64,000 bases of DNA, from positions 6,156 to 70,155 of the forward strand of contig DASPGX010000006.1 of the NCBI GenBank assembly GCA_035620375.1. The letters are read 5' to 3'. Under the pieces are notes generated by a model, which was given only the letters and a program-made list of their open reading frames with translations, had not been told where the DNA came from and did not search any database. Positions 28,852 to 43,279 of this stretch are shown here, one piece after another; position 1 is the stretch's first letter; each line of letters starts with the position of its first letter. This stretch comes from Minisyncoccota bacterium (GTDB lineage Bacteria; Patescibacteriota; Minisyncoccia; 2-02-FULL-40-12; GWA2-44-9). The position numbers and the translations under genes were made by a program.

Positions 28852-29499
28852 GTGAAGCTTTTCGTCCCTACGTTCGTATTCGTTCTGGCGGCCGCCGGCG
28901 CCGGTGCGCAAACCGGAGAGGAGTCCGGTTCCGGGACATGTCCGCCGGGATTCGACTGCACCGGCGTGGTGGTCCGGAGCGCAACGCCCATCCGTGACAG
29001 CATACCCGGGGCGGTTTCCCGTGCGGCCCGGGACCTTCCGACCGTCCGGGTGCGCCGTGAGCACCTGGAGCTGTGCCCGGCCGGGTTCGTCCGGTGCGTG
29101 GAGCGTGAATCGTTCTGGAGCCCGACCAACCTGCTTCTGACGTCGTTCCAGTGGGGCGGGGCGTTCTACGACAGCAAGACGACGATGAACGCCGACGCCC
29201 TCAACGGATCGTACGAGGTGACCCGCGACGGACGGCCGGTGCGGCTGGTCGTTACCGTCAGAGAGGAAGCCGGTCCCGAGCAATGGTTCATCGACCGGGG
29301 TCCGGTGGCCCTGGGCGGGTACAAGGCGCTGTACAACGTGCCCTTTGCGGTCGCTTCCCACAAGCTCCGGCAGAGCAACAGCTCGTTCGGCCGTGTTGTC
29401 GGCTATGCCGTGCCAATCGTACTGGGCGCGCTACAGTGGAAGGCTGGGTTGGACAACAAAAAGGAAATCGACCGCATCAACGGCCTCATCGCCCCCTGA
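28852..29499 (+). CDS. Secreted hypothetical protein (215 aa, signal peptide, 4 Cys)
   Basis: GTG start with AGGAGG RBS. Signal peptide MKLFVPTFVFVLAAAGAGAQ. Confidence 0.6.
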   Translation: MKLFVPTFVFVLAAAGAGAQTGEESGSGTCPPGFDCTGVVVRSATPIRDSIPGAVSRAARDLPTVRVRREHLELCPAGFVRCVERESFWSPTNLLLTSFQWGGAFYDSKTTMNADALNGSYEVTRDGRPVRLVVTVREEAGPEQWFIDRGPVALGGYKALYNVPFAVASHKLRQSNSSFGRVVGYAVPIVLGALQWKAGLDNKKEIDRINGLIAP

Positions 29500-29523: not shown

Positions 29524-30279
29524 GTGGGGGCCCGTTTTTGTTACGATTTTCCCGTGTTTGATTACGATACGAACAAGGTCGTTCTTTCGGTGTACGCGGG
29601 AGCCGGGGGAGTGGATGCCCAGGACTGGGCATCCATGCTTCTGCGGATGTACCAGCGTTTCGCCGCCCGGAGAGGGTGGTCGTTTTCCGTTCTTGACCAG
29701 TCGCTGGGCGAACAAAAGGGAATTAAAAGCGCATCGGCGGAACTGGCGGGTGCGGGTGTCTATGATACACTGAAGGGCGAGAGCGGGGTGCACCGGCTGG
29801 TGCGTATCAGTCCGTTCTCGGCAAAACAGCTCCGGCACACGTCTTTCGCGCTCATTCAGGTCATGCCGGAGATCAAGGCCCAGGCATTGCACATCAATCC
29901 CGCGGACCTTGAATATGATACGTTCCGCGCCTCGGGGAAGGGAGGTCAGAACGTCAATAAAGTGGAAACCGCGGTCCGCGTGCGGCACAAGCCGACGGGG
30001 CTGGTGGTCGCCGTGCAGACGGAGCGCTCCCAGGCACAGAACCGTGAGAAGGCCCTGCAGCTGCTCGCATCGCGCCTCGCGGTGATGATGGAAGAGGCCA
30101 AAGTCAGCCAGCTGGACCAGCTCAAGCCCGAACTGAAGTCCGGTTCGGTGGACTGGGGAAGCCAAATCCGTTCGTATGTCCTGCACCCGTACCAGATGGT
30201 CAAGGACCACCGGACGGGCGTGAAGAGTTCCCAGCCGGACAAGGTACTGGACGGCGACCTGTCCAAATTTATTCCGTGA
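29524..30279 (+). CDS. prfB: Peptide chain release factor 2 homologue lacking N-terminal domain 1
   Basis: Contains [14 protein letters not shown] codon-recognition tripeptide, GGQ ([19 protein letters not shown]) and the conserved C-terminus ([21 protein letters not shown]). Only about 250 aa; the ORF begins at the region equivalent to E. coli RF2 residue about 105. Confidence 0.8.
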
Positions 30280-30959
30280 TAGAGCTCAACAACGTCTCCA
30301 CCGTCTATGATGACGATTTCGTCGCCCTGCACGGGGTGAGTCTTGCCATCAATCCCGGCGAGTTCGTCTCCATCGTCGGTCCGGCGGGAGCGGGCAAGTC
30401 CACGCTTCTGCGTCTGTTGACGCGCGAGTTGCGGCCGACCGAAGGGGTCGTCACCGTTGACGGCGTGGACCTTTCGCATATTCCCGACGACGACGTACCG
30501 TTGCTCCGGCGTAAAATCGGCACGGTATTCCAGGACTTCAAGCTGTTGTCCAACCGCAACGCGTTTGAGAACGTCGGCTATGCCATGGAGGTAGCGGGCG
30601 CCACGGAGGACGAGATTGCCGAAGACGTACCCAAGGCGCTGGACATCGTCGGTCTCGGGGACAAGCGGAACAATTTTCCGCACCAGCTCTCGGGTGGCGA
30701 GAAACAGCGTCTGGCAATCGCGCGTGCCCTTATTCACCGGCCGCGCATCATTCTTGCCGATGAGCCCACGGGAAACCTGGACATGGTCAACAGCCACGAC
30801 GTGATACAATTGCTCCTGAAGATTAACGCGCTGGGCACCACCGTCCTGCTCGTCACGCATAACCGCGACATCGTGAATACCGTGAACCGGCGCGTGGTGA
30901 CCATGGAGACCGGGCGCATCGTCCGGGACCAGACGCAGCACGGTAAATACATCATTTAG
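30276..30959 (+). CDS. ftsE: Cell-division ABC ATPase FtsE
   Basis: Walker [15 protein letters not shown], signature [15 protein letters not shown], Walker [12 protein letters not shown]. Directly upstream of ftsX. Confidence 0.88.
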
Positions 30960-30968
30960 TCCGCATTT

Positions 30969-31880
30969 ATGCTGAAAGAAAAGCTCCGAAGGGTATTCGC
31001 GGCCGGGTGGAAGAATTTCCGCCGGAACCGGTACGTCAGCATCGGCACGACCGGGGTGATGTCGCTCGTTCTGCTGCTGTTCCTGTGCCTGGTCGGAGTC
31101 AACTTCCTGGGCTCGGTGCTGGTACAGAACCTGGAGGGGAAGGTTGACGTGCGGCTGTATCTGAAGAACGAGGCGACGGACGACGAAGTGAAGACCATCC
31201 GCACGGAACTGGAAGCGCTCAATTCGGTGAAGTACGTGGACTTCGTGTCCCGCGAACAGGCATTGGCCGAGTTCAAGGAACGGCACGCCAACGACGCGCT
31301 CATTCAGCAATCGCTGTCCGAGCTTCCCGACAACCCGTTGCAGGCGTGGTTGAACATCAAAGCGACTGACGCGACGCAGTACGCGTCCATCGTCGGATTC
31401 CTTGAGGCCAGCCGCATGCGCAGCGTCATTGATAAAATCAACTATTACGACAACGAGGCGGTCATCGGCCGCATCCAGGGAATCTCGCACGCAGTGCAGA
31501 ACTGGGGAATGATCGGTACCTTGCTGCTCGCCTTCATCTCGGTGCTGGTCGCGTTCAACACGGTCAGGCTCACCATATACAACCAGAAGCAGGAGATTGA
31601 GATTCAGCGGCTCGTGGGTGCGTCCAACTGGTATATCCGGGCGCCGTATATGATAGAAGGGGTACTGTACGGCGGATTCGCAACTGCCATCGCGCTGGTG
31701 CTCTTCTTCGGGGGACTGCAGTTCGCATCTCCGAAGGTCGCCGTGCTGATGCCCGGCGTGTCGCTCATGGGATACTTCGCCGGCAACGTCGTTCAGATTA
31801 TCGGCATGACCCTGTTTGCCGGCATCGCCCTGGGAGTCGTTTCATCGCTTGTTGCCATCCGGCGCTTCCTCAACGTATAG
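30969..31880 (+). CDS. ftsX: Cell-division permease-like protein FtsX
   Basis: N-terminal TM, large extracytoplasmic loop, three C-terminal TMs of the FtsX fold. Adjacent to ftsE. Confidence 0.85.
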   Translation: MLKEKLRRVFAAGWKNFRRNRYVSIGTTGVMSLVLLLFLCLVGVNFLGSVLVQNLEGKVDVRLYLKNEATDDEVKTIRTELEALNSVKYVDFVSREQALAEFKERHANDALIQQSLSELPDNPLQAWLNIKATDATQYASIVGFLEASRMRSVIDKINYYDNEAVIGRIQGISHAVQNWGMIGTLLLAFISVLVAFNTVRLTIYNQKQEIEIQRLVGASNWYIRAPYMIEGVLYGGFATAIALVLFFGGLQFASPKVAVLMPGVSLMGYFAGNVVQIIGMTLFAGIALGVVSSLVAIRRFLNV

Positions 31881-34992: not shown

Positions 34993-35020
34993 TTGACTTT
35001 TATATATAATATTGTAGTAT
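34993..35020 (+). promoter_or_regulatory. Candidate promoter TTGACT-16-TAGTAT for the 35.1-38.7 kb module
   Basis: Sharply AT-rich (ttgacttttatatataatattgtagtat) in a GC-rich context, about 70 nt upstream of the first gene of the cluster. Confidence 0.45.
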
Positions 35021-35090
35021 CTTGCCGCAACATGGACGTTCACAACTGAGTAAAGGACCCTACGAAAACCGCAGAAAGAGAGGTGGCAAT

Positions 35091-35345
35091 GTGACATCAG
35101 GCGGCAAGGCACCTCTCCGGGCCATCGTGCAGGGCACCTATGGGCCGTCCGGCGGCAGGTATGCCGTCGGGACCGCGACGACCGTTACCGGCTCCATCAC
35201 GTTCTCCCTGAAACGGGACGTGTGGGGCGAGGGGCGGGAGCCGCGGGCAGGCGAAGAGGTGTTTCTGGACGACATCACCCGGAACAGAGAAGGGTGGCGG
35301 GCCAACAGGGCGCGGCTCATCCGGCTCGGCGACGGGCAGGGATAG
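35091..35345 (+). CDS. Small hypothetical protein (84 aa)
   Basis: GTG start with GAGAGGTGG RBS. Gly/Thr-rich N-terminus. Confidence 0.4.
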   Translation: MTSGGKAPLRAIVQGTYGPSGGRYAVGTATTVTGSITFSLKRDVWGEGREPRAGEEVFLDDITRNREGWRANRARLIRLGDGQG

Positions 35346-35387
35346 CCGTTCAAGCAACGAGCAACGAGAAGTGAGAAAGGAGAACCG

Positions 35388-36047
35388 ATGAGTTTTCTGG
35401 CAAGACTGAAGGAGACGCTGAATCCGTTCGAAGAGGTGCCCGACAAGGGCGCCGCCGCCGAGACGGAGGACGCTCCGGAGACGCCGGTCCGCACGGGCCG
35501 GGGCCGTGGCGCTCCGTCCGTCATCTTCCCGAAGGTCGCCCCGACGGCGGCCGGCGTGGACGACGGCACGGTGGACGACTTCCTCAAGCAGCTCCGTGCC
35601 GAGACGGCGAGCAGGCGCTCGGCAGGACACACCGCGTTCTACGAAAAGCTGGACGCGCTGGTGGAGTTCGTTCCCGATCCGGGCAGCCGGTACAAGGCCG
35701 CCCTCAAGACGGCCAAGGGCGTGACCGCCAAGGACCTCCTGGCTTCCATCACCGCCGTGGAAACGGCGCTCGGTGAGGAGTCCAAGGAGTTCGAGGCGGA
35801 AATCGGCTCGGCCGAGGAGCGGGAAGTCATCGGCGCGCGCGCCGAGGCGGAGGCAATCGACGGTCAGATCGAGACGCTCAACCAGCAGCTCGGCGAGCTG
35901 CGGGCCAAGCGTACGTCGCTGGCCGGCGGCATCTCCAACGCGGAGCGCAAGTACGCGGGTCTCCGCGCGGCGTTCAGCAAGGCGCTCGGCACGTTCAAGA
36001 GAGAGCTGGACGCCGAGCGGACCAACATCACGACCCACCTGGGCTGA
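35388..36047 (+). CDS. Soluble coiled-coil hypothetical protein (219 aa)
   Basis: AAAGGAGAA RBS. Acidic disordered N-terminus then a long helical/coiled-coil region. Confidence 0.55.
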   Translation: MSFLARLKETLNPFEEVPDKGAAAETEDAPETPVRTGRGRGAPSVIFPKVAPTAAGVDDGTVDDFLKQLRAETASRRSAGHTAFYEKLDALVEFVPDPGSRYKAALKTAKGVTAKDLLASITAVETALGEESKEFEAEIGSAEEREVIGARAEAEAIDGQIETLNQQLGELRAKRTSLAGGISNAERKYAGLRAAFSKALGTFKRELDAERTNITTHLG

Positions 36048-36077
36048 CATCCGGGCACGGAAGAAAGGAGAACAGAC

Positions 36078-37136
36078 ATGCACGGTATGGAAATTCCGGG
36101 CTCGGGGCAGGGGAAGTCGTTCTGGGAGCGGCCGGAGGGCACTGCCGGAATGATTTTCGGCCTCCTGGCCATCGCGGCCGGCGTGGTCGGTCTGGGCTTG
36201 GCCCTGCCGTTCCTCATCGGCCTGGTGCAGAACCTCATCACGCTCGTCGGGCTCGGCCTGACGCTCATTCCGATGGCGGTCCTGCTTTTCGCGATGCTCT
36301 GGGTCGTCATGGACAAGCGCTTCTGGACGCTCGGCTGGTACCTCTACAAGTCGGCGATGCGGAAGATCACTTCGATGTTCGTGGAGATCGACCCCATCGG
36401 CATCATGAAGAGCTACGTGGAGAGCCTGCAGGACAAGCGGAACGAGATGGCCAGGAACATCAAGGACCTGTCCGGACAGTTCCGCGTCCTCGGCGAGAAG
36501 ATCCAGGCCAATCAGCGCGAGGGCGAAGCCGCCCTCAAGATGGCCGCAGTCGCCCGCCGGGAGAACGAGAAGACGACGGTCGCCCTGGAGTCCCGCAAGG
36601 CCGGAAGGCTCAAGCGGGCCAACATCGACCTCATCGACTTGCACAAGAAGATCGAGCTGACGCTGCGGGTGCTCAAGAAGTACCACGACGTCGCCGGCGT
36701 CATCATCGCCGACATCGAGCACGAGGTGAAGGTGCAGGAGGACAAGCGGAGCAGCATCCGCAAGGCCTACGGCGCCTTCAAGCAGGCGATGGCCATCTTC
36801 AACGGCGACCCCGACAAGATGGAGATGTTCAACATGGCGATGGAGAGCGTCGCCAACGACTACGGACAGAAGCTCGGCGAAATCGAGTACTTCATCGACT
36901 CGTCCGAGTCCATTATCAAGGGCATCGACCTGCAGAACATGCAGTTCGAGGAAGAGGCCCTGGCGATGCTGGACGAGTGGGAGTCCAAGGCCGACGACCT
37001 GCTCATGGACCCCGTCGAAAAGCGGAACATCATGTCCCAGTCATACAGCGACACCGAAGTTCTCGACGTCGATGCGCTCGGGAGCCAGGTGACGGAGCAG
37101 CCGGTCAGGCGCAGCAAGTACCTGTCCGGCAACTGA
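36078..37136 (+). CDS. Membrane protein with two N-terminal TM helices and about 280-aa coiled-coil domain (352 aa)
   Basis: Hydrophobic helices GMIFGLLAIAAGVVGLGLALPFLIGLV and LTLIPMAVLLFAMLWVV. The remainder is heptad-rich. Faint TelA-like flavour only. Confidence 0.55.
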   Translation: MHGMEIPGSGQGKSFWERPEGTAGMIFGLLAIAAGVVGLGLALPFLIGLVQNLITLVGLGLTLIPMAVLLFAMLWVVMDKRFWTLGWYLYKSAMRKITSMFVEIDPIGIMKSYVESLQDKRNEMARNIKDLSGQFRVLGEKIQANQREGEAALKMAAVARRENEKTTVALESRKAGRLKRANIDLIDLHKKIELTLRVLKKYHDVAGVIIADIEHEVKVQEDKRSSIRKAYGAFKQAMAIFNGDPDKMEMFNMAMESVANDYGQKLGEIEYFIDSSESIIKGIDLQNMQFEEEALAMLDEWESKADDLLMDPVEKRNIMSQSYSDTEVLDVDALGSQVTEQPVRRSKYLSGN

Positions 37137-37182
37137 TTCGCGCATCACTCATCGGACAACGAACAGAAAGGAGCATTGAGCA

Positions 37183-38730
37183 ATGGCAAGGCAAATGAAG
37201 GCCGGGCACAAGTTCGTCCTGATCCTGCTCGTCATGAGCGGCATCGGCGCGGCCGGGTGGTTCGGCTGGCCGTACCTGGAGAAGCTGGCTCCGCCCAGCA
37301 GGGGCGCCTCGGGCGGTTCGTCCGCCCCCGTCGCCATCCCGAACAACAGCAAGTACGACCTGGTGCGGGTCGCGGTGGTCACCTGGGGTGGCTACGCCGG
37401 CGGCCAGTACTTCAACCGCGGATTCAAGCCGAATCCGGACTCCCGGTACATCCAGGAGTACGGACTCCCGGTGGAGTTCGTGGTGATGGACGACTACCTG
37501 GCGTCGCGCGAGGCGTGGAAGGCCGGCGAGGTCCACCTGTTGTGGGCTACCGCCGACTCGTTCCCGACCGAGGCGTCCAGCATGGCGTCCTTCGAGCCCA
37601 CCATCGTCTTCCAGTCCGACTGGTCCCGCGGCGGCGACGTCATCGTCTCCCGCGAGGGCATCGGTTCCATGCGCGACCTGCGGGGCAAGCGGGTGTCGGT
37701 GGCGTTCGGTACGCCGTCGCACACGTTCCTGCTGCGCATGCTGGAGTCCGCGGGCATGAGCGTCCGCGACATCCAGATCGTGGAGGTCCCTTCGGCCATC
37801 GACTCCGCCGCGGCCTTCAAGGCCGGTCAGGTGGAGGCGGCGGTCGTCTGGTCCCCGGACGACGAGGACTGCGTCCAGTCCGTCCGCGGGTCCAAGCGCC
37901 TGGTCAGCACCAAGGAAGCGGCCTACATCATCGCGGACGTCTTCTACGGAAAGAAGGGCTGGGTGGAAAGCCACCAGGAAGAGCTCAAGGCGCTCGTCGA
38001 GGGATGGCTGCGCGGCGCGGCCGAGGTCAACACGAACCCGTCCGCCAAGGCGCAAGCCGTCCGCATCCTCGCCGAGGGCCTGAACCAGCCGGAGAGCTTC
38101 ACGGAGATCGCCATCAACAACGCGCGTCTGACGACGTACGGCGACAACGTGAACTTCTTCAACCTCAGCGGTAACGCCACCGGCGTGACCGGCGAGCGGC
38201 TGTACATGGAGACCGGAGCGCTCTACCAGGCCAACACGAACCTCGTGTCCGGCCGGCTGCCCAACTGGCGGCAGGTCACCGACACGAGCGCCCTGCGGGC
38301 GGTCAACCTGAACGGACCGGAGCACGCCGCCGAAGGGCAGTTCCAGTTCGCCAAGGCCACGCAGGCCCAGGCGTCCGCCGAGGCGTTCTCGTCCAAGGCG
38401 GTGTCGGTGAGCTTCCCGACGGGTTCGGCCACGCTGGACCCGAACGCGAGGACCATCATCGACCTGGGATTCGTTCCCACGGCCAAGGCGTTCGCCAGCG
38501 TGCGTATCCGCATCGAGGGCAACACGGACGTCACCGGCTCGTACGACACCAACAAGCGGCTGTCCGAAGCCCGCGCCCGCGCCGTCGCCGACTACCTCGC
38601 ACAGGAGTACGGCTTCGACCGGAACCGGTTCATCGTGGTCGGCAACGGCCCCGACAAGCCGGTGTGCCGCGACGATTCGGCGGACTGCTACGCCAGGAAC
38701 CGCCGGACCGACTTCGAGCTGCTGCAGTAG
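37183..38730 (+). CDS. Membrane-anchored SsuA/NMT1-like substrate-binding protein fused to C-terminal OmpA-like peptidoglycan-binding domain (515 aa)
   Basis: N-terminal signal anchor (KFVLILLVMSGIGAAGWFGW). Periplasmic-binding-protein region (VRVAVVTWGGYAGGQYF..., NitT/TauT SBP-like). C-terminal OmpA_C signature (IRIEGNTDVTGSYDTNKRLSEARARAVADYL...NRRTDFELL). Confidence 0.7.
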   Translation: MARQMKAGHKFVLILLVMSGIGAAGWFGWPYLEKLAPPSRGASGGSSAPVAIPNNSKYDLVRVAVVTWGGYAGGQYFNRGFKPNPDSRYIQEYGLPVEFVVMDDYLASREAWKAGEVHLLWATADSFPTEASSMASFEPTIVFQSDWSRGGDVIVSREGIGSMRDLRGKRVSVAFGTPSHTFLLRMLESAGMSVRDIQIVEVPSAIDSAAAFKAGQVEAAVVWSPDDEDCVQSVRGSKRLVSTKEAAYIIADVFYGKKGWVESHQEELKALVEGWLRGAAEVNTNPSAKAQAVRILAEGLNQPESFTEIAINNARLTTYGDNVNFFNLSGNATGVTGERLYMETGALYQANTNLVSGRLPNWRQVTDTSALRAVNLNGPEHAAEGQFQFAKATQAQASAEAFSSKAVSVSFPTGSATLDPNARTIIDLGFVPTAKAFASVRIRIEGNTDVTGSYDTNKRLSEARARAVADYLAQEYGFDRNRFIVVGNGPDKPVCRDDSADCYARNRRTDFELLQ

Positions 38731-38758
38731 ACACACCGTTCCCGGGGTGGGGCGCAAC
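38722..38758 (+). terminator. Rho-independent terminator/attenuator after the binding-protein gene
   Basis: GGGGTGGGGCG-caa-CGCCCCACCCC followed by TTTTCC. Confidence 0.6.
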
Positions 38759-38793
38759 GCCCCACCCCTTTTCCTTAATCAAGGAGAAGTCGC

Positions 38794-39588
38794 ATGAAGG
38801 GATTGTTCACGCTCCGCGGCGAGCTGACGAGGGTCCAGGAGATCGTGCTCGCCGCCGCCGGGACGGTGCTGCTGCTTGCGGGATGGTCCGCCGTGTCATC
38901 CACGGTCGGCCAGCCCAAGCTGCTTCCGTACCCGTCCGCGGTACTCGCCTCGTTCGCCGAGCTGCACTTCGAGGACGCGCTGGTACGCAACACCTTCGCG
39001 TCCATCAAGCTCAACGTGCTCGGCTACCTGGAGGCAATCGCCATCGCGCTGCCCCTGGGGTTCCTCATCGGCCTCGTGCCGTTGTTCCGGGGACTGTTCC
39101 ACCGGCACGTCGTCGCCCTGCGGTATCTGCCGCTGACGGCGGTCGTGGGGTTGTTCATCCTCTGGTTCGGCATCTACGGGACCATGAAGGTGCAGTTCCT
39201 CACGCTGGGCATCCTCGTCTACCTGCTTCCGGTGGTCGTGGACCGCATCGACGAGGTGCAGAGGGTCTACCTGGATACGGTCAAAACGCTGGGCGCAAGC
39301 GCCCTGCAGACCATCCGGACCGTGTACGTGCCCGACGTCTTGTCGCGCGTGTACGGGGACGTCGTGACGCTGGTGGCCATCAGCTGGACCTACATCATCA
39401 TCGCGGAAATCATCAACCTCGGTCAGGGCGGCATCGGCGCGCTGGTCTACCAGTCGGCGCGGCAGAGCCGGCCGGACAAGGTGTTCGCGGTCCTGGTGGT
39501 CATCATCGCCATCGGGTTCGTGCAGGATAAGGCGCTCAAGGGTCTGGGAAGGGTGCTCTTCCCGTACCGCTACGGCGCGGGGAGGTGA
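38794..39588 (+). CDS. ABC transporter permease, NitT/TauT (SsuC/TauC-like) family
   Basis: Six TM segments. Conserved cytoplasmic loop of binding-protein-dependent permeases. AAGGAGAAG RBS. Confidence 0.8.
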   Translation: MKGLFTLRGELTRVQEIVLAAAGTVLLLAGWSAVSSTVGQPKLLPYPSAVLASFAELHFEDALVRNTFASIKLNVLGYLEAIAIALPLGFLIGLVPLFRGLFHRHVVALRYLPLTAVVGLFILWFGIYGTMKVQFLTLGILVYLLPVVVDRIDEVQRVYLDTVKTLGASALQTIRTVYVPDVLSRVYGDVVTLVAISWTYIIIAEIINLGQGGIGALVYQSARQSRPDKVFAVLVVIIAIGFVQDKALKGLGRVLFPYRYGAGR

Positions 39589-40412
39589 CCGCCATGGAGA
39601 ACATCCGGTTCGTAAACCGCGAGGAGTTCACGGACGCCATCGAGCTCCGGGACGTCTCGCACACGTACGACGGCGGAACGACCTGGACCATCCGGGACTG
39701 CAACCTGCTCATCGAGAACGAGACCGGCAAGGGGGAGTTCGTGGTCCTGCTCGGCCTGTCCGGCTGCGGCAAGTCCACGCTTCTGCGGTTCATCGCAGGA
39801 CTGGCGAAGCCGACCAAGGGCCAGGTCCTCATCGGCGGCAAGCCGCGGACGGACCGGGACGTCATCAGCATGGTGTTCCAGCAGTACTCGTCCCTGCCGT
39901 GGTACACGGTCCTGGACAACGTGGCGCTTGCGCTCCGGTACCAGGGCGTGCCCCGGAAGGAGAAGTACGAACGGGCGCGTGAGATGATCCGGCGGGTCGG
40001 CCTGGCGGGACACGAGCACAAGTACTCCACCGAGCTGTCCGGCGGACAGCTCCAGCGGGTCGCCATCGCAAGGAGCCTGGTATCCAACCCGGGGATGGTC
40101 CTGATGGACGAGCCGTTCGGCGCCCTGGACGTGGTGACGCGGTACGAGATGCAGATGCTGGTCAACGATCTCTTCGAGAGTATCCAGCCGACCATCATCT
40201 TCATCACCCACGACATCCGCGAGGCCGTGTTCCTGGCCAACCGCATCTACGTCATGTCGCCGCGGCCGGGACGCATCACGCACAAGATTGACGTGGACCC
40301 GGTGCTGAGCTGGCACCGTGACAAGAGCACGCTGCGCGACCCCGCGTTCACCGACCTGGTGCATGAGGTGGACGCGGCGCTTGCCGCGACGGTCAACAAC
40401 GCGAAGTTCTGA
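39585..40412 (+). CDS. ABC transporter ATP-binding protein, NitT/TauT (SsuB/TauB-like) family
   Basis: Walker A GLSGCGKSTLLRFIAG, signature LSGGQLQRVAIARSL, Walker B LMDEPFGALD. 4-nt overlap with the permease. Terminator at 40420-40450. Confidence 0.85.
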   Translation: MTAMENIRFVNREEFTDAIELRDVSHTYDGGTTWTIRDCNLLIENETGKGEFVVLLGLSGCGKSTLLRFIAGLAKPTKGQVLIGGKPRTDRDVISMVFQQYSSLPWYTVLDNVALALRYQGVPRKEKYERAREMIRRVGLAGHEHKYSTELSGGQLQRVAIARSLVSNPGMVLMDEPFGALDVVTRYEMQMLVNDLFESIQPTIIFITHDIREAVFLANRIYVMSPRPGRITHKIDVDPVLSWHRDKSTLRDPAFTDLVHEVDAALAATVNNAKF

Positions 40413-40511
40413 ATCGCGAAGGCGGGACGCTCCGGCGCCCCGCCTTTTACTTTTGACGATTTTAATAAATTGTTGTATTCTATGCCATCTTTGACGTTGG
40501 AGGTGGTTCAC

Positions 40512-41153
40512 ATGGGTCAGGCCGAATGGGCCCGGAAGCAGTACAATAGCTGGGAAGCGTACGACGCGGACCTCAAAGAAGCCGGATGGGAGGTTCCTGA
40601 CGAGTTGTCCCGTGCCGTGGCGCCGTACCTGCGGAGGTATGACATTACCCTGGACGTCGGTTGCGGAACCGGGCTTCTGGGCGCCGGCCTCCGGTTCCAG
40701 GGGTATGCCGGCAGGCTCATCGGGCTGGATGCCGCCGAAGAGCGCCTTGCCGAAGCGCGGGCGCGGACATTCGCCGGCCGGACGGTGTACGACCTGACGA
40801 GGACGGGGGATGCCTATCGGCTCCCGTGGCATCCGCGTTCGTTCAACGCGGTCGTCTCTTCGGCGATGCTGGGCCTGACCGGTCCCCGCTCGCTGGTGCA
40901 GATGCTCCGCGTTCTGCGGAAAGACGGAATTCTCGGCATCGTACCGGCGCGCCTGCTGGGCAACCGGCAGCACGAGACGAGATATCGCAGGGTACTCGAT
41001 ACCCTGGAGACTTTTGTCGGTTCCCGGCTTCTGGAAGTTCTGGAACAGCGGAGTCTGGGCACCGGCTACCACGGACCGGACCGCGATGAGCGGTACGTGC
41101 TGTACATCTGCCGGCTGACCCGGCCGTACCGCACGGGGCGGCCATGGCGATAA
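40512..41153 (+). CDS. Class I SAM-dependent methyltransferase
   Basis: Motif I LDVGCGTGLLGAGL. GGAGGTGG RBS before ATG 40512. Confidence 0.7.
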   Translation: MGQAEWARKQYNSWEAYDADLKEAGWEVPDELSRAVAPYLRRYDITLDVGCGTGLLGAGLRFQGYAGRLIGLDAAEERLAEARARTFAGRTVYDLTRTGDAYRLPWHPRSFNAVVSSAMLGLTGPRSLVQMLRVLRKDGILGIVPARLLGNRQHETRYRRVLDTLETFVGSRLLEVLEQRSLGTGYHGPDRDERYVLYICRLTRPYRTGRPWR

Positions 41154-41887
41154 AAAACGCGGTTGTCGCGTTTGCACTGCTCACGGCAGCCGCGAACGCG
41201 GCGCCCGTGGACGGTCCGGAACGGCACGAGTTCGCATTCGCGCGGCTGGAGTACCGTGGCTGCAACAGCGGATGGGACTTCCAATTTCCGCCGTGGGCGA
41301 CGGACTATCCTAAGGCCGACGAGCAGTTCATTCTCGGTGTCCGCCGCCTGGCAAACCTGGACATCTATCCGCGGGCGCATGTCGTGCGCATCGGCGACGA
41401 ACTGCACCGGTATCCGTTCCTGTACGCGGTGGAGGTCGGCAACATGTGTCTGACGGACATCGAGGCCGCTCAGCTTGCCCGCGTATTGGACGGAAGGGGC
41501 GGATTCCTGATGGTGGACGACTTCTGGGGCGAGTTACAATGGGACCAATTCGCCGGACAGATGGCGAAGGTCCTGCCCGGCCGGCCCATCCGCGAACTGC
41601 CGATGAGCCACCCGGTATTCCGCTCGTTCTACGATGTGCGGGAGACCGTACAGATTCCGAACATCATACAGGCGCTTGCCGGCGGTTCCACTGCCGAGTG
41701 CGAGGGCTGCGAGCACCGCGTGTACGGCATAGAGGATGAGCGCGGCCGACTGGTGGTGCTCATCCTGCACAACACGGACCTCGGCGATGCCTGGGAATGG
41801 GCGGAAAATCCGTACTTCCCGCTGGCGATGTCCAACTACGCGTTCAAGATGGGCATCAACGCCATCGTCTACGCGATGACGCATTGA
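41144..41887 (+). CDS. Secreted protein, DUF4159-like (247 aa)
   Basis: Signal peptide. Motifs PFLYAVEVG, GGFLMVDDFWG, HPVFRSF resemble DUF4159 (glutamine-amidotransferase-like fold) as recalled. Terminator at 41888-41928. Confidence 0.5.
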   Translation: MAIKNAVVAFALLTAAANAAPVDGPERHEFAFARLEYRGCNSGWDFQFPPWATDYPKADEQFILGVRRLANLDIYPRAHVVRIGDELHRYPFLYAVEVGNMCLTDIEAAQLARVLDGRGGFLMVDDFWGELQWDQFAGQMAKVLPGRPIRELPMSHPVFRSFYDVRETVQIPNIIQALAGGSTAECEGCEHRVYGIEDERGRLVVLILHNTDLGDAWEWAENPYFPLAMSNYAFKMGINAIVYAMTH

Positions 41888-41945: not shown

Positions 41946-42275
41946 ATGAGTCACCGCGCCGTACTGGAGTACATCACCGCGGGCCGTGCATGCGGGCTGA
42001 CCGACCACGATATCGCCGTGCGTCTTGAGGGCGCGGGATGGACATCCGCGGACGTGCAGGACGCGTTCACCCTTGCGGCAAAGATGGACGACGTTCCCGC
42101 GAAGCCGGAGGAGAAGGCGTGGTGCCCTCCCGACAATGCGCGGAGCGCGCCGGTACCGACCGTCAAGGATAAAGTACTCGGTTCGCGTACACCCCGCACG
42201 AGCGCCGTCCGGTACGCCGCCTGGCTTTCCGTCGCCCTTGTCGCGTTTCTGTTCGGTTTTTCAATCATGCGCTGA
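41946..42275 (+). CDS. Tail-anchored small membrane protein (109 aa)
   Basis: ATG 41946 lies 7 nt after TATACT, so possibly leaderless. Single C-terminal TM (AAWLSVALVAFLFGF). Confidence 0.45.
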   Translation: MSHRAVLEYITAGRACGLTDHDIAVRLEGAGWTSADVQDAFTLAAKMDDVPAKPEEKAWCPPDNARSAPVPTVKDKVLGSRTPRTSAVRYAAWLSVALVAFLFGFSIMR

Positions 42276-43279
42276 TGCTTCCGCTGCGTGCTTTCGGTAT
42301 CGCCGGCTGTGCAGCCGCCCTCGCCGGGGCGGCTTTCATCGTCGGTCCACAGACGGCCTCGGAGACACATATCTTCAATGACCGTGCCCGGCCCGATCCG
42401 ATTATCATGCCGGAAACCGTCACGCTTCTCTTCGCCGGCGACATCATGCTCTCACGCTCGGTGGGGGACGTCATGGCGCGCAGCGGCGACTGGCTGCTGC
42501 CGTTCCGTGACATCGCGTCCGTGACCGCGGGGGCGGACGCGGCGTTCGCAAATCTGGAGACGACAATTTCGCTACGTGGTTCGCCCGCGGGATGCGGGTA
42601 CTGTTTCCGCGCTGACCCGCGCGCGGTGGACGGCCTGGTGTATGCGGGATTCGACGTCGTGTCGGTGGCGAACAACCACATCTTCGACTACGGTCCGGAG
42701 GCGTTTACCGACACGCTGGCGAATCTTGATGCGGCGGGTATCCGTTATGCCGGCGGGGGAGCGGATGCTCCGTCGGCGCGGGAGCCGGTTGTCCTGGAGC
42801 TGGGAAGGACGCGGGTCGCGTATCTGGCGTACACGAACCTGCTTCCCGCAGGTGCGGGTGCCGCGTATGGCAGGGCGGGAGCGAGCCTGTACGACGCGGA
42901 AACGATGGCGGGAGACATCGTGCGGGCACGGGGTCTTGCCGATATCGTCGTCGTTTCGTTCCATGCCGGCGAGGAGTACGAAACGGAACCGGGCGAGTGG
43001 CAGGAGCGCGTCTACCGCGAGGCGGTTGATGCGGGAGCCGACCTGGTCATCGGTCACCATCCCCATGTGGTGCAACCCGTTGTTGCGTACGGAGAGGGCT
43101 GGATCGCGTACTCGCTCGGAAACTTCGTCTTTGATCAGACGTTCTCGGAGGCGACCATGCGGGGACTGCTTCTGGAGGCGACTGTGCGCGGAAACGAGGT
43201 GCTGGACGTCCGCGAGATTTCCGTGGACATCTCCCGGCAATACCGGCCGTCCCTTGCGGATGACGGCGCCGGGCGATAG
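42275..43279 (+). CDS. CapA/PGA-cap family metallophosphoesterase-like protein
   Basis: Signal peptide. Metallophosphatase motifs GDIML, ANNH, GHHPH, and CapA-like overall order. ATGA overlap with the upstream gene. Confidence 0.7.
   Translation: MLPLRAFGIAGCAAALAGAAFIVGPQTASETHIFNDRARPDPIIMPETVTLLFAGDIMLSRSVGDVMARSGDWLLPFRDIASVTAGADAAFANLETTISLRGSPAGCGYCFRADPRAVDGLVYAGFDVVSVANNHIFDYGPEAFTDTLANLDAAGIRYAGGGADAPSAREPVVLELGRTRVAYLAYTNLLPAGAGAAYGRAGASLYDAETMAGDIVRARGLADIVVVSFHAGEEYETEPGEWQERVYREAVDAGADLVIGHHPHVVQPVVAYGEGWIAYSLGNFVFDQTFSEATMRGLLLEATVRGNEVLDVREISVDISRQYRPSLADDGAGR

Follow-up and report, generated by a model that had tools for sequence, protein, structure and literature searches.

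A probably membrane-anchored NitT/TauT-type binding protein with an OmpA-like domain, encoded beside a probable PspA/Vipp1-type protein and an ABC importer in a Minisyncoccota genome

Apart from the proteobacterial Psp system, little is understood of how bacterial proteins of the PspA/Vipp1/ESCRT-III type are activated. The receptors that monoderm bacteria and archaea keep at the membrane are either lipoprotein substrate-binding proteins (SBPs) or substrate-binding domains fused to the permease (OpuA, GlnPQ), in both cases tethered at one end and without a wall-binding domain. Proteins joining a periplasmic binding protein (PBP) to an OmpA domain have been described by Ravi et al. (2024, mSystems, PMC11237479) in operons with PspA, transmembrane (TM) Snf7 and ATP-binding cassette (ABC) transporter genes, in a computational study that gives them a one-sentence interpretation. 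Here, we analyzed a protein of this kind, SBP-OmpA, encoded at positions 37183-38730 (+ strand) of a stretch of 64,000 nucleotides from a Minisyncoccota bacterium (contig DASPGX010000006.1, assembly GCA_035620375.1), hereafter the window. The gene is a member of a known, computationally described family, and the bare domain fusion is not new. We propose, giving it about an even chance, that SBP-OmpA is a NitT/TauT-type importer receptor held at both ends that acts with a PspA/Vipp1-like protein in envelope maintenance. The gene and its parts are the following.

37183-38730, + strand: SBP-OmpA gene, ATG start, 515 aa, membrane-tethered NitT/TauT-type binding protein with an OmpA-like domain
37210-37269, + strand: N-terminal hydrophobic helix, probable uncleaved signal anchor (about residues 10-29; helix 7-27 in the AlphaFold2 model)
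37270-37362, + strand: variable Pro/Gly/Ser-rich tether (residues 30-60; predicted local distance difference test score, pLDDT, below 50 at residues 35-46)
37363-38337, + strand: type II periplasmic binding fold (residues 61-385; Pfam, NCBIfam and TauA/SsuA fold match)
38338-38403, + strand: ordered, conserved connector (residues 386-407; conservation starts near residue 360)
38404-38730, + strand: OmpA-like domain (residues 408-515; PF00691, YiaD match, invariant columns)

The start codon is preceded, 9 nt upstream, by AAAGGAG. The Pfam OmpA family (PF00691) matches residues 411-507 (56.5 bits, gathering threshold 27.2, E 3.6e-15, model positions 2-98 of 98), and the signature IEGNTD...N..LS..RA...NRRTDFEL, on which a sequence-only reading of the gene had based its assignment of an OmpA_C domain, is present verbatim. 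The NitT/TauT binding fold named in the same reading was confirmed by the TauA/SsuA fold match and by NMT1-type Pfam matches within residues 91-297 (NMT1 46.5 bits vs 20.5, Phosphonate-bd 44.2 vs 27, NMT1_2 34.8 vs 24.7). Among solved structures, the OmpA-like part matches by sequence YiaD (2k1s, E 7e-12, residues 408-513) as well as the PA0833, OprF and Pal domains, and the binding fold matches SsuA and TauA (E 1e-11 to 1e-8). NCBIfam models gave partial, sub-threshold matches, in the N-terminal part to the urea-carboxylase-associated SBP, SsuA and TauA and in the C-terminal part to YiaD, Pal, MotB and TssL, with scores far from the cut-offs (TIGR03427 75.5 vs 333.9, SsuA_fam 72.7 vs 163.5, TauA 46.8 vs 304). 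An NCBI protein identical to SBP-OmpA over its full length, from a 'Candidatus Paceibacterota' metagenome-assembled genome (MAG), is named 'phosphate ABC transporter substrate-binding/OmpA family protein'; since the NCBIfam cut-offs were missed and PstS and PhnD models were missing from the best 25 of the 47 NCBIfam families matched, 'phosphate' is unsupported as a specificity. Regarding the N-terminus, no cysteine occurs in the first 60 residues and the protein is therefore not a lipoprotein. The hydrophobic stretch spans 19 residues and an AXA cleavage motif is not conserved in the family alignment, so that the N-terminal helix is likely an uncleaved signal anchor, in line with the signal anchor named in the sequence-only reading.

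An AlphaFold2 model of SBP-OmpA built with 70 homologs had a mean pLDDT of 91 and a predicted TM-score (pTM) of 0.86. It consists of the helix 7-27, a disordered segment 30-60, a two-lobe alpha/beta fold from residue 61 to about 385, and an OmpA-type unit at 401-514, in which the order beta-alpha-beta-alpha-beta-beta is formed by strand 401-407, helix 420-436, strand 441-446, helix 454-476, strand 483-487, helix 500-506 and strand 509-514 (pLDDT about 84-97). The best Foldseek match in the PDB was TauA (6ssy, TM-score on target 0.81, E 6.7e-18), then SsuA, with ThiY, PqqT and CmpA after them; none of the 50 matches listed was a solved chain that fits both domains well.

In OmpA-like domains, an aspartate in the motif N/H-T-D and an arginine in the motif L-S-x-x-R hold the diaminopimelate of the stem peptide, as is known from the structures of A. 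baumannii OmpA and Pal. In the 70 SBP-OmpA homologs, N447-T448-D449, L460-S461, R464 and N506-R507-R508 are invariant, and the NTD, LS..R and NRR motifs are kept even in relatives of 30% identity. We take D449 and R464 to be this peptidoglycan-binding pair, and the OmpA-like domain would bind peptidoglycan non-covalently. The segment leading into this domain carries the near-invariant residues P360, W362, R363, G378, E384, F389 and K405. Because the connector (about residues 360-407) is conserved, pLDDT is 91-98 across residues 360-410 and the pTM of the whole chain is 0.86, the OmpA domain is predicted to pack rigidly on the binding fold with no flexible linker between them. The 30-residue tether that follows the TM helix, which is the least conserved and a length-variable part of the family alignment, is then the only flexible element of the model. 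The window protein has a cysteine pair, C494/C501 (38662-38685), in the final loop of its OmpA domain, within a PVCxxDxxxCY motif found in five of 22 aligned members (the window protein, P0015, P0097, P0055 and P0101, with residues inserted between the paired cysteines in P0055 and P0101); the loop of most members reads PVAxNxTxEGR instead. A C494-C501 disulfide would fit an extracytoplasmic location.

Considering the gene surroundings, SBP-OmpA takes the third place in a conserved module that also encodes a coiled-coil protein (CC), a TM protein with a PspA/Vipp1-like domain (TMCC) and an ABC importer, and membership in this module makes envelope maintenance the most likely role and ordinary nutrient scavenging unlikely. 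The remaining features of the region are the following (ORF, open reading frame; CPR, candidate phyla radiation).

35022-35345, + strand: small ORF of 107 aa with which the unit probably begins, its conservation restricted to CPR-type loci
35388-36047, + strand: CC, predicted cytoplasmic coiled-coil protein, 219 aa, conserved module member
36078-37136, + strand: TMCC, 352 aa, two TM helices and a predicted cytoplasmic PspA/Vipp1-like hairpin domain
38744-38768, + strand: GC-rich hairpin with an 11 bp stem (10 GC pairs), then a T-run, TTTTCCTT, between the SBP-OmpA stop and the permease start
38794-39588, + strand: ABC permease, 264 aa, BPD_transp_1, SaoP/TauC/SsuC-like (Pfam, NCBIfam)
39585-40412, + strand: ABC ATPase, 275 aa, TauB-like, with a 4-nt overlap with the permease stop codon

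The ORFs of 81 related loci were called and clustered, and the partners were counted by tblastn in the loci with enough flank. The order CC, TMCC, SBP-OmpA, permease, ATPase recurs among these loci, in CPR bacteria, Bacteroidota, Fibrobacteres and others, and the flanks differ. TMCC lies directly upstream of SBP-OmpA in 67 of 73 loci and a CC homolog upstream in 65 of 73, and the permease and ATPase follow downstream in 50 of 67. The most constant neighbour of SBP-OmpA is a PspA/Vipp1-like gene, not the transporter. In the window, the gene is followed by a permease of the TauC type and an ATPase of the TauB type, which agrees with its earlier designation as an ABC-importer receptor; the permease starts 63 nt downstream (best NCBIfam models SaoP, TauC and SsuC, all sub-cut-off), and the ATPase matches Pfam ABC_tran with 105 bits and, as its best NCBIfam model, TauB with 206 bits, below the cut-off. 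The 17 loci without ABC genes are mostly from Saprospiraceae and Chitinophagales and are scattered over several subclades of a neighbor-joining (NJ) tree; P0042, which may be the protein of one of them (L005), retains every invariant residue.

TMCC has hydrophobic helices at about residues 22-47 and 51-76, and since basic residues flank both of them, both ends of the protein would be cytoplasmic by the positive-inside rule. In its AlphaFold2 model (pLDDT 77, above 90 for residues 110-230), helices 106-161 and 165-242 form a long hairpin, followed by a helix at 245-309. Vipp1 accounts for all eight top Foldseek matches in the PDB (probability 1.00, 185-231 columns, with E-values of only 5e-3 to 8e-2), and Asgard ESCRT-IIIB and CHMP2A-CHMP3 stand lower in the list. 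Three of 50 TMCC homologs match PF04012 (best E 2e-5), and some homologs are annotated by JGI as 'phage shock protein A'. Searches of PDB sequences with the TMCC profile, phmmer with one PF04012-positive homolog, and hhalign against an approximate sequence of E. coli PspA were all non-significant. The PspA assignment, for which the support is the predicted fold, probably holds: we consider it a good deal likelier than otherwise that TMCC belongs to the PspA/Vipp1/ESCRT-III superfamily and has two TM helices as its anchor, which fits the 'TM + divergent Snf7' described in PMC11237479. CC shares 26% identity (E 9e-13) with its counterpart in L001; its identification as PspA was rejected, given the missing Pfam support in 34 members and a profile-profile comparison with the TMCC family of only 33% probability over 33 columns. 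Both proteins have a conserved motif near the N-terminus, in CC (L/I)K(S/G)LF(I/V) followed by an acidic linker (35388-35420) and in TMCC KSFWERPEGTTGM just before the first TM helix (36111-36140); these could be docking peptides.

About 55 residues are invariant across the 70 SBP-OmpA homologs. Aromatic and acidic residues are frequent among them (W68, W121, W147, W223, D146, D152, D226, D227, D252, D321), and R149 and H180 are invariant or nearly so. The candidates for the pocket are W68, Q144, D146-W147-S148-R149-G-G-D152, P178-S179-H180, W223-S-P-D226-D227, D252 and D321-N322. In TauA, the sulfonate is contacted by Gln30, Gly61, Gly79 and Thr132 and the taurine amine by Glu106 and Asp205 (PMC6906117). 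One pairwise HMMER alignment (E 9e-9), by which these contacts were mapped, places Glu106 and Asp205 on the invariant D152 and D252 and Trp176 on W223, and the sulfonate contacts Gly61, Gly79 and Thr132 on Y105, T123 and P178, with Gln30 outside the alignment. Because positions aligned with TauA contacts, and others, are invariant in 70 homologs, the binding cleft appears to be under strong selection. As to the intactness of the pocket, which the sequence-only reading had referred to structure prediction, the predicted fold is TauA-like, and in this alignment the amine-contact positions appear to be kept, as aspartates, and the sulfonate-binding positions not. The ligand probably carries a protonated amine and would probably be zwitterionic; the invariant pair Arg149/His180 could hold an anionic group. 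Candidates include sulfonates or phosphonates with an aminoalkyl group, headgroups of the choline or ethanolamine type, polyamines and amino acids from the wall.

The sequence-only reading had called the fusion unusual. The best 120 relatives in a collection of 5.8 billion proteins, of about 510 aa and 50-62% identical, all combine an OmpA with an NMT1-type Pfam domain; in a library of 1.84 billion representatives of 50%-identity clusters, E<=1e-30 is reached by 267 clusters, nearly all in one stretch over residues ~60-514; and at least 592 loci were confirmed by two family motifs in species genomes (one genome per GTDB species). Considering also the NCBI name and the description in PMC11237479, this claim does not stand: the architecture is common, and it is characterised, though only computationally. 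Among 80 listed loci, 63 are labelled Bacteroidota (Saprospiraceae, Chitinophagales, Bacteroidales and cultured Aquimarina, including a complete chromosome), and the others are Fibrobacteres, CPR lineages, Spirochaetia and a few more. Because most listed members are from diderm Bacteroidota and Fibrobacteres, the earlier idea that the architecture retains a binding protein in a monoderm envelope does not serve as a general rationale. In the rough NJ tree, the CPR copies, including that of the window, are grouped, and the Bacteroidota form a separate large clade; because of these separate clades, the gene looks resident in both monoderm- and diderm-type envelopes. Some taxon labels of the MAGs are doubtful, as a copy labelled 'Thiotrichaceae' (L053) and one from Bacteroidales (L063) are joined by very short branches, and a 'Nanoarchaeota' MAG and a 2.7-kb 'Gammaproteobacteria' contig (L049, L004) fall in mostly CPR clades.

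Relatives of 32-41% identity have the SBP-OmpA unit behind a TM segment, with predicted cytoplasmic domains at the N-terminus. One (P0293) has a Peptidase_C14 caspase domain and stands alone, and another (P0381) has an AAA_35/STAND-type NTPase domain and adjoins a TIR-AAA_35 protein; neither has ABC genes nearby. Their positions are the following.

L082 and L083, 6001-8592: caspase/STAND-fused relatives
L084, 6001-8571: caspase/STAND-fused relative

These relatives keep the Q-x-DWSRGGD and OmpA motifs, on which ground the SBP-OmpA unit can apparently serve as an extracytoplasmic input domain, and they differ at several pocket positions. Their fusion to caspase and STAND domains makes a sensing role plausible, and together with the PspA-like neighbour being more constant than the ABC genes it lends support to the alternative, already raised in the sequence-only reading, that the protein senses rather than transports. 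The longer relatives were also considered as Rosetta-stone fusions with the PspA-like protein, which was rejected, as what extends them at the N-terminus is a caspase, STAND or unknown domain and not TMCC or CC. A weak lead on the ligand is that the caspase-fused relative lies divergently beside a Puu-like gene set of the putrescine-catabolism type (amino-acid permease, Gln-synthetase-like, SDR, aldehyde dehydrogenase, GATase/C26).

Based on these data, we propose that the N-terminal helix would stay in the membrane with the OmpA domain on the wall, the assembly bridging the gap between them; that the binding fold would capture a small amine-bearing, probably zwitterionic solute and pass it to the permease directly below; and that solute capture at the wall would be coupled to an ESCRT-III-type protein stabilising or remodelling the membrane from its cytoplasmic face. 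Several observations weigh against this proposal. SBP-OmpA is under every NCBIfam equivalog cut-off, and the sulfonate-binding positions of TauA are not conserved in it. No Pfam match of the window TMCC to PF04012 or Snf7 was found even at E<=10, and CC, with 34 members scanned, has only generic coiled-coil Pfam matches and no PspA signal. In 17 of 67 loci no ABC genes lie within 6 kb, and there TMCC is kept and the pocket is fully conserved. A receptor fixed to the wall would have to reach the permease, the rigid docking of the two domains is deduced from the pTM and pLDDT, and the literature on the family yielded only a computational mention and no experimental work.

A second explanation is that the doubly tethered protein is primarily a sensor, reporting either a ligand of the periplasm or wall or the membrane-wall distance to the PspA/Vipp1-like protein, with the ABC transporter as an accessory or relay. 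The greater constancy of the PspA-like gene (67 of 73 loci, vs 50 of 67 for the ABC genes) fits such a sensor, as do the loss of ABC adjacency in several separate subclades with the pocket invariant throughout and the reuse of the unit on caspase and AAA_35/STAND domains away from ABC genes, and solute-binding proteins are in general established as sensors (PMC8050422). On the other hand, a complete importer directly follows in the window and in three quarters of the loci, with the 4-nt overlap of permease and ATPase; the window protein carries no signalling domain; its contact with the PspA-like protein is conjectural; and the caspase- and STAND-fused relatives have diverged at several pocket positions. 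We consider this explanation possible but tentative, and rate it only moderately lower than a receptor acting in envelope maintenance. It may be widened to a portable sensor of envelope integrity, in which an amine ligand from wall or membrane, or lost membrane-wall contact, would cause a membrane-anchored ESCRT-III/Vipp1-like polymer to assemble at the damage, the ABC transporter would serve as relay or salvage, and elsewhere the unit would arm a caspase or STAND/TIR protein. This wider version is doubtful; if true, it would mean that bacterial ESCRT-III homologs receive a defined input from outside the cytoplasm.

Nutrient uptake, with an OmpA domain that merely prevents diffusion away and upstream coiled-coil genes that are unrelated neighbours, would suit a CPR (Paceibacterota) MAG, from a lineage generally held to lack an outer membrane, with classical importer genes and a hairpin after the binding-protein gene that resembles the classical ABC-operon arrangement giving excess binding protein. 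Such a function is nevertheless unlikely, as most members belong to diderms (Bacteroidota and Fibrobacteres), whose periplasmic proteins do not have to be retained, and the TM anchor alone already retains SBP-OmpA. Moreover, the two upstream genes are syntenic across phyla where all other flanks differ, and 50-60% cross-phylum identity with about 55 invariant residues is, in our judgement, more constraint than a usual scavenging receptor shows. A purely structural membrane-wall tether of the Pal/YiaD/MotB kind, with the binding fold as a rigid, ligand-free spacer, would account for the TM anchor and C-terminal OmpA-like domain (the layout of MotB, YiaD and TssL) and for the compact and rigid model, and it is very improbable considering the invariance of the cleft positions aligned with TauA ligand contacts and the linkage to a cognate permease and ATPase.

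Regarding expression of the module, sigma-70-like sites (consensus matches only) precede the small ORF at 35022 (34993-35020) and a methyltransferase at 40470, which suggests a transcription unit spanning 35022-40412. The hairpin at 38744-38768 may be an attenuator or an mRNA-stabilising element; terminator-like sites are no more numerous in the region than expected from shuffling. Counterparts of the small ORF occupy the same position in L002 (45% identity, E 3e-23), L060 (42%, E 2e-15), L049 and L058, loci whose labels are, between them, Minisyncoccia, Paceibacteria, Moranbacteria and 'Nanoarchaeota'; the ORF had no match in Pfam, NCBIfam or PADLOC. In 7 of the 81 loci, from Aquimarina and a few other Bacteroidota, the module is followed by a 634-aa protein with AAA and AAA_lid_6 domains in its C-terminal half (L076, 9819-11723, L077, L081, L074, L041, L068 and L024); this AAA+ protein is absent from the entire window by tblastn and from the Pfam matches of the neighbours at 29.5-45 kb. 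In five Saprospiraceae/Lewinellaceae loci (L061, 54-4262, and L029, L064, L073 and L078), the gene immediately before that of the PspA-like protein encodes a protein of about 1400 aa with SprB repeats and a CHU_C type IX secretion signal; no CC-family match was found in the four of these loci that were inspected (L061, L064, L073 and L078).

An origin of the module from a phage or mobile element, which the patchiness of the MAG labels and the abundance of small ORFs on one strand in L001 had led us to suspect, was rejected for the window, because an RF2-like gene, ftsEX, gmd and tRNAs are present and there is no GC anomaly over the module. The separate grouping of CPR and Bacteroidota copies in the rough NJ tree and the presence of the module in complete Aquimarina chromosomes also argue against it. 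The GC content of the window is 59-66% throughout, which is high for a CPR genome. A DUF4159 gene (41144-41887) and a CapA/PGA_cap gene (42275-43279) are also encoded. The class-I release-factor gene, RF2-like and short (29524-30279, + strand, 251 aa), lies directly upstream of ftsE/ftsX (30276-31880) and has the SPF and GGQ motifs; its N-terminal domain seems to be missing, since PCRF is matched only from position 96 of its 194-position profile. The ORF ahead of the gene (28852-29499) is unrelated to it, and a programmed +1 frameshift was discarded, with no CTTTGAC nearby.

Overall, the module appears to pair a protein of the PspA/Vipp1 type with a ligand-binding protein that would contact both membrane and wall. 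If the binding protein is the input, the state of the wall or a specific solute would be linked to membrane remodelling, and its reuse on caspase and STAND domains would be explained. What is new here is the census, in which the PspA-like gene is the most constant partner, the structural support for a Vipp1-like fold of that partner, an SBP-OmpA unit that appears rigid, its conserved pocket of the amine type and the reuse on caspase and STAND proteins. Cultivable Aquimarina carry the module, which makes an experimental study feasible.

The closest described system is the operon of Ravi et al. (PMC11237479; example OGG56892.1, from Candidatus Handelsmanbacteria), with a coiled-coil/PspA-like protein, a membrane-anchored member of the ESCRT-III superfamily, a protein with signal/TM segment, binding fold and OmpA domain, a permease and an ATPase; the likeness to OGG56892.1 is one of the published list of parts. 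The window, too, combines a TM ESCRT-III-like protein, a PBP+OmpA protein, a permease and an ATPase in one operon, and the AAA+ follower of 7 loci, including Aquimarina, matches the 'inactive AAA + AAA' partner of the published operon. In contrast to that operon, the window has a different gene order (CC, TM-PspA-like, SBP-OmpA, permease, ATPase), lacks the AAA+ ATPase and begins with a gene without PspA signal.

In the comparison with TauABC and SsuABC (NitT/TauT, TC 3.A.1.17), TauA (6ssy) and SsuA (2x26, 3ksx) are the nearest match of the binding fold; nearest to the permease are TauC, SsuC and SaoP, and to the ATPase TauB. Glu106 and Asp205 of TauA, which bind the amine, align with invariant Asp residues. 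However, SBP-OmpA has only about 18% identity, misses the equivalog cut-offs and does not conserve the sulfonate positions, and TauA and SsuA are free periplasmic proteins without TM anchor or OmpA domain, regulated by sulfur starvation and without a link to a PspA-like gene. The C-terminal domain resembles those of the MotB/PomB, ZorB, TssL, YiaD and Pal proteins, with matches to YiaD, Pal, MotB and TssL models or structures, and SBP-OmpA is built in the order known from MotB, with a membrane anchor, then a periplasmic spacer and the OmpA-like domain at the C-terminus. Unlike in these binders, the spacer is a complete 325-residue ligand-binding fold, and the partner is a type I ABC importer and not of the MotA/ExbB type. 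Membership in a known anti-phage defence system was considered and rejected, as PADLOC gave generic matches only (ZorB via the OmpA/MotB domain, and ABC ATPase similarity). TMCC shares with PspA, Vipp1 (IM30) and ESCRT-III proteins the long alpha1 and the alpha2-3 hairpin of the predicted fold, and differs from them in its 352 aa and in an anchorage by two TM helices instead of the amphipathic helix alpha-0. With the tethered SBPs of monoderm bacteria and archaea, finally, SBP-OmpA shares a receptor kept at the membrane beside its transporter, but its family occurs mostly in diderms.

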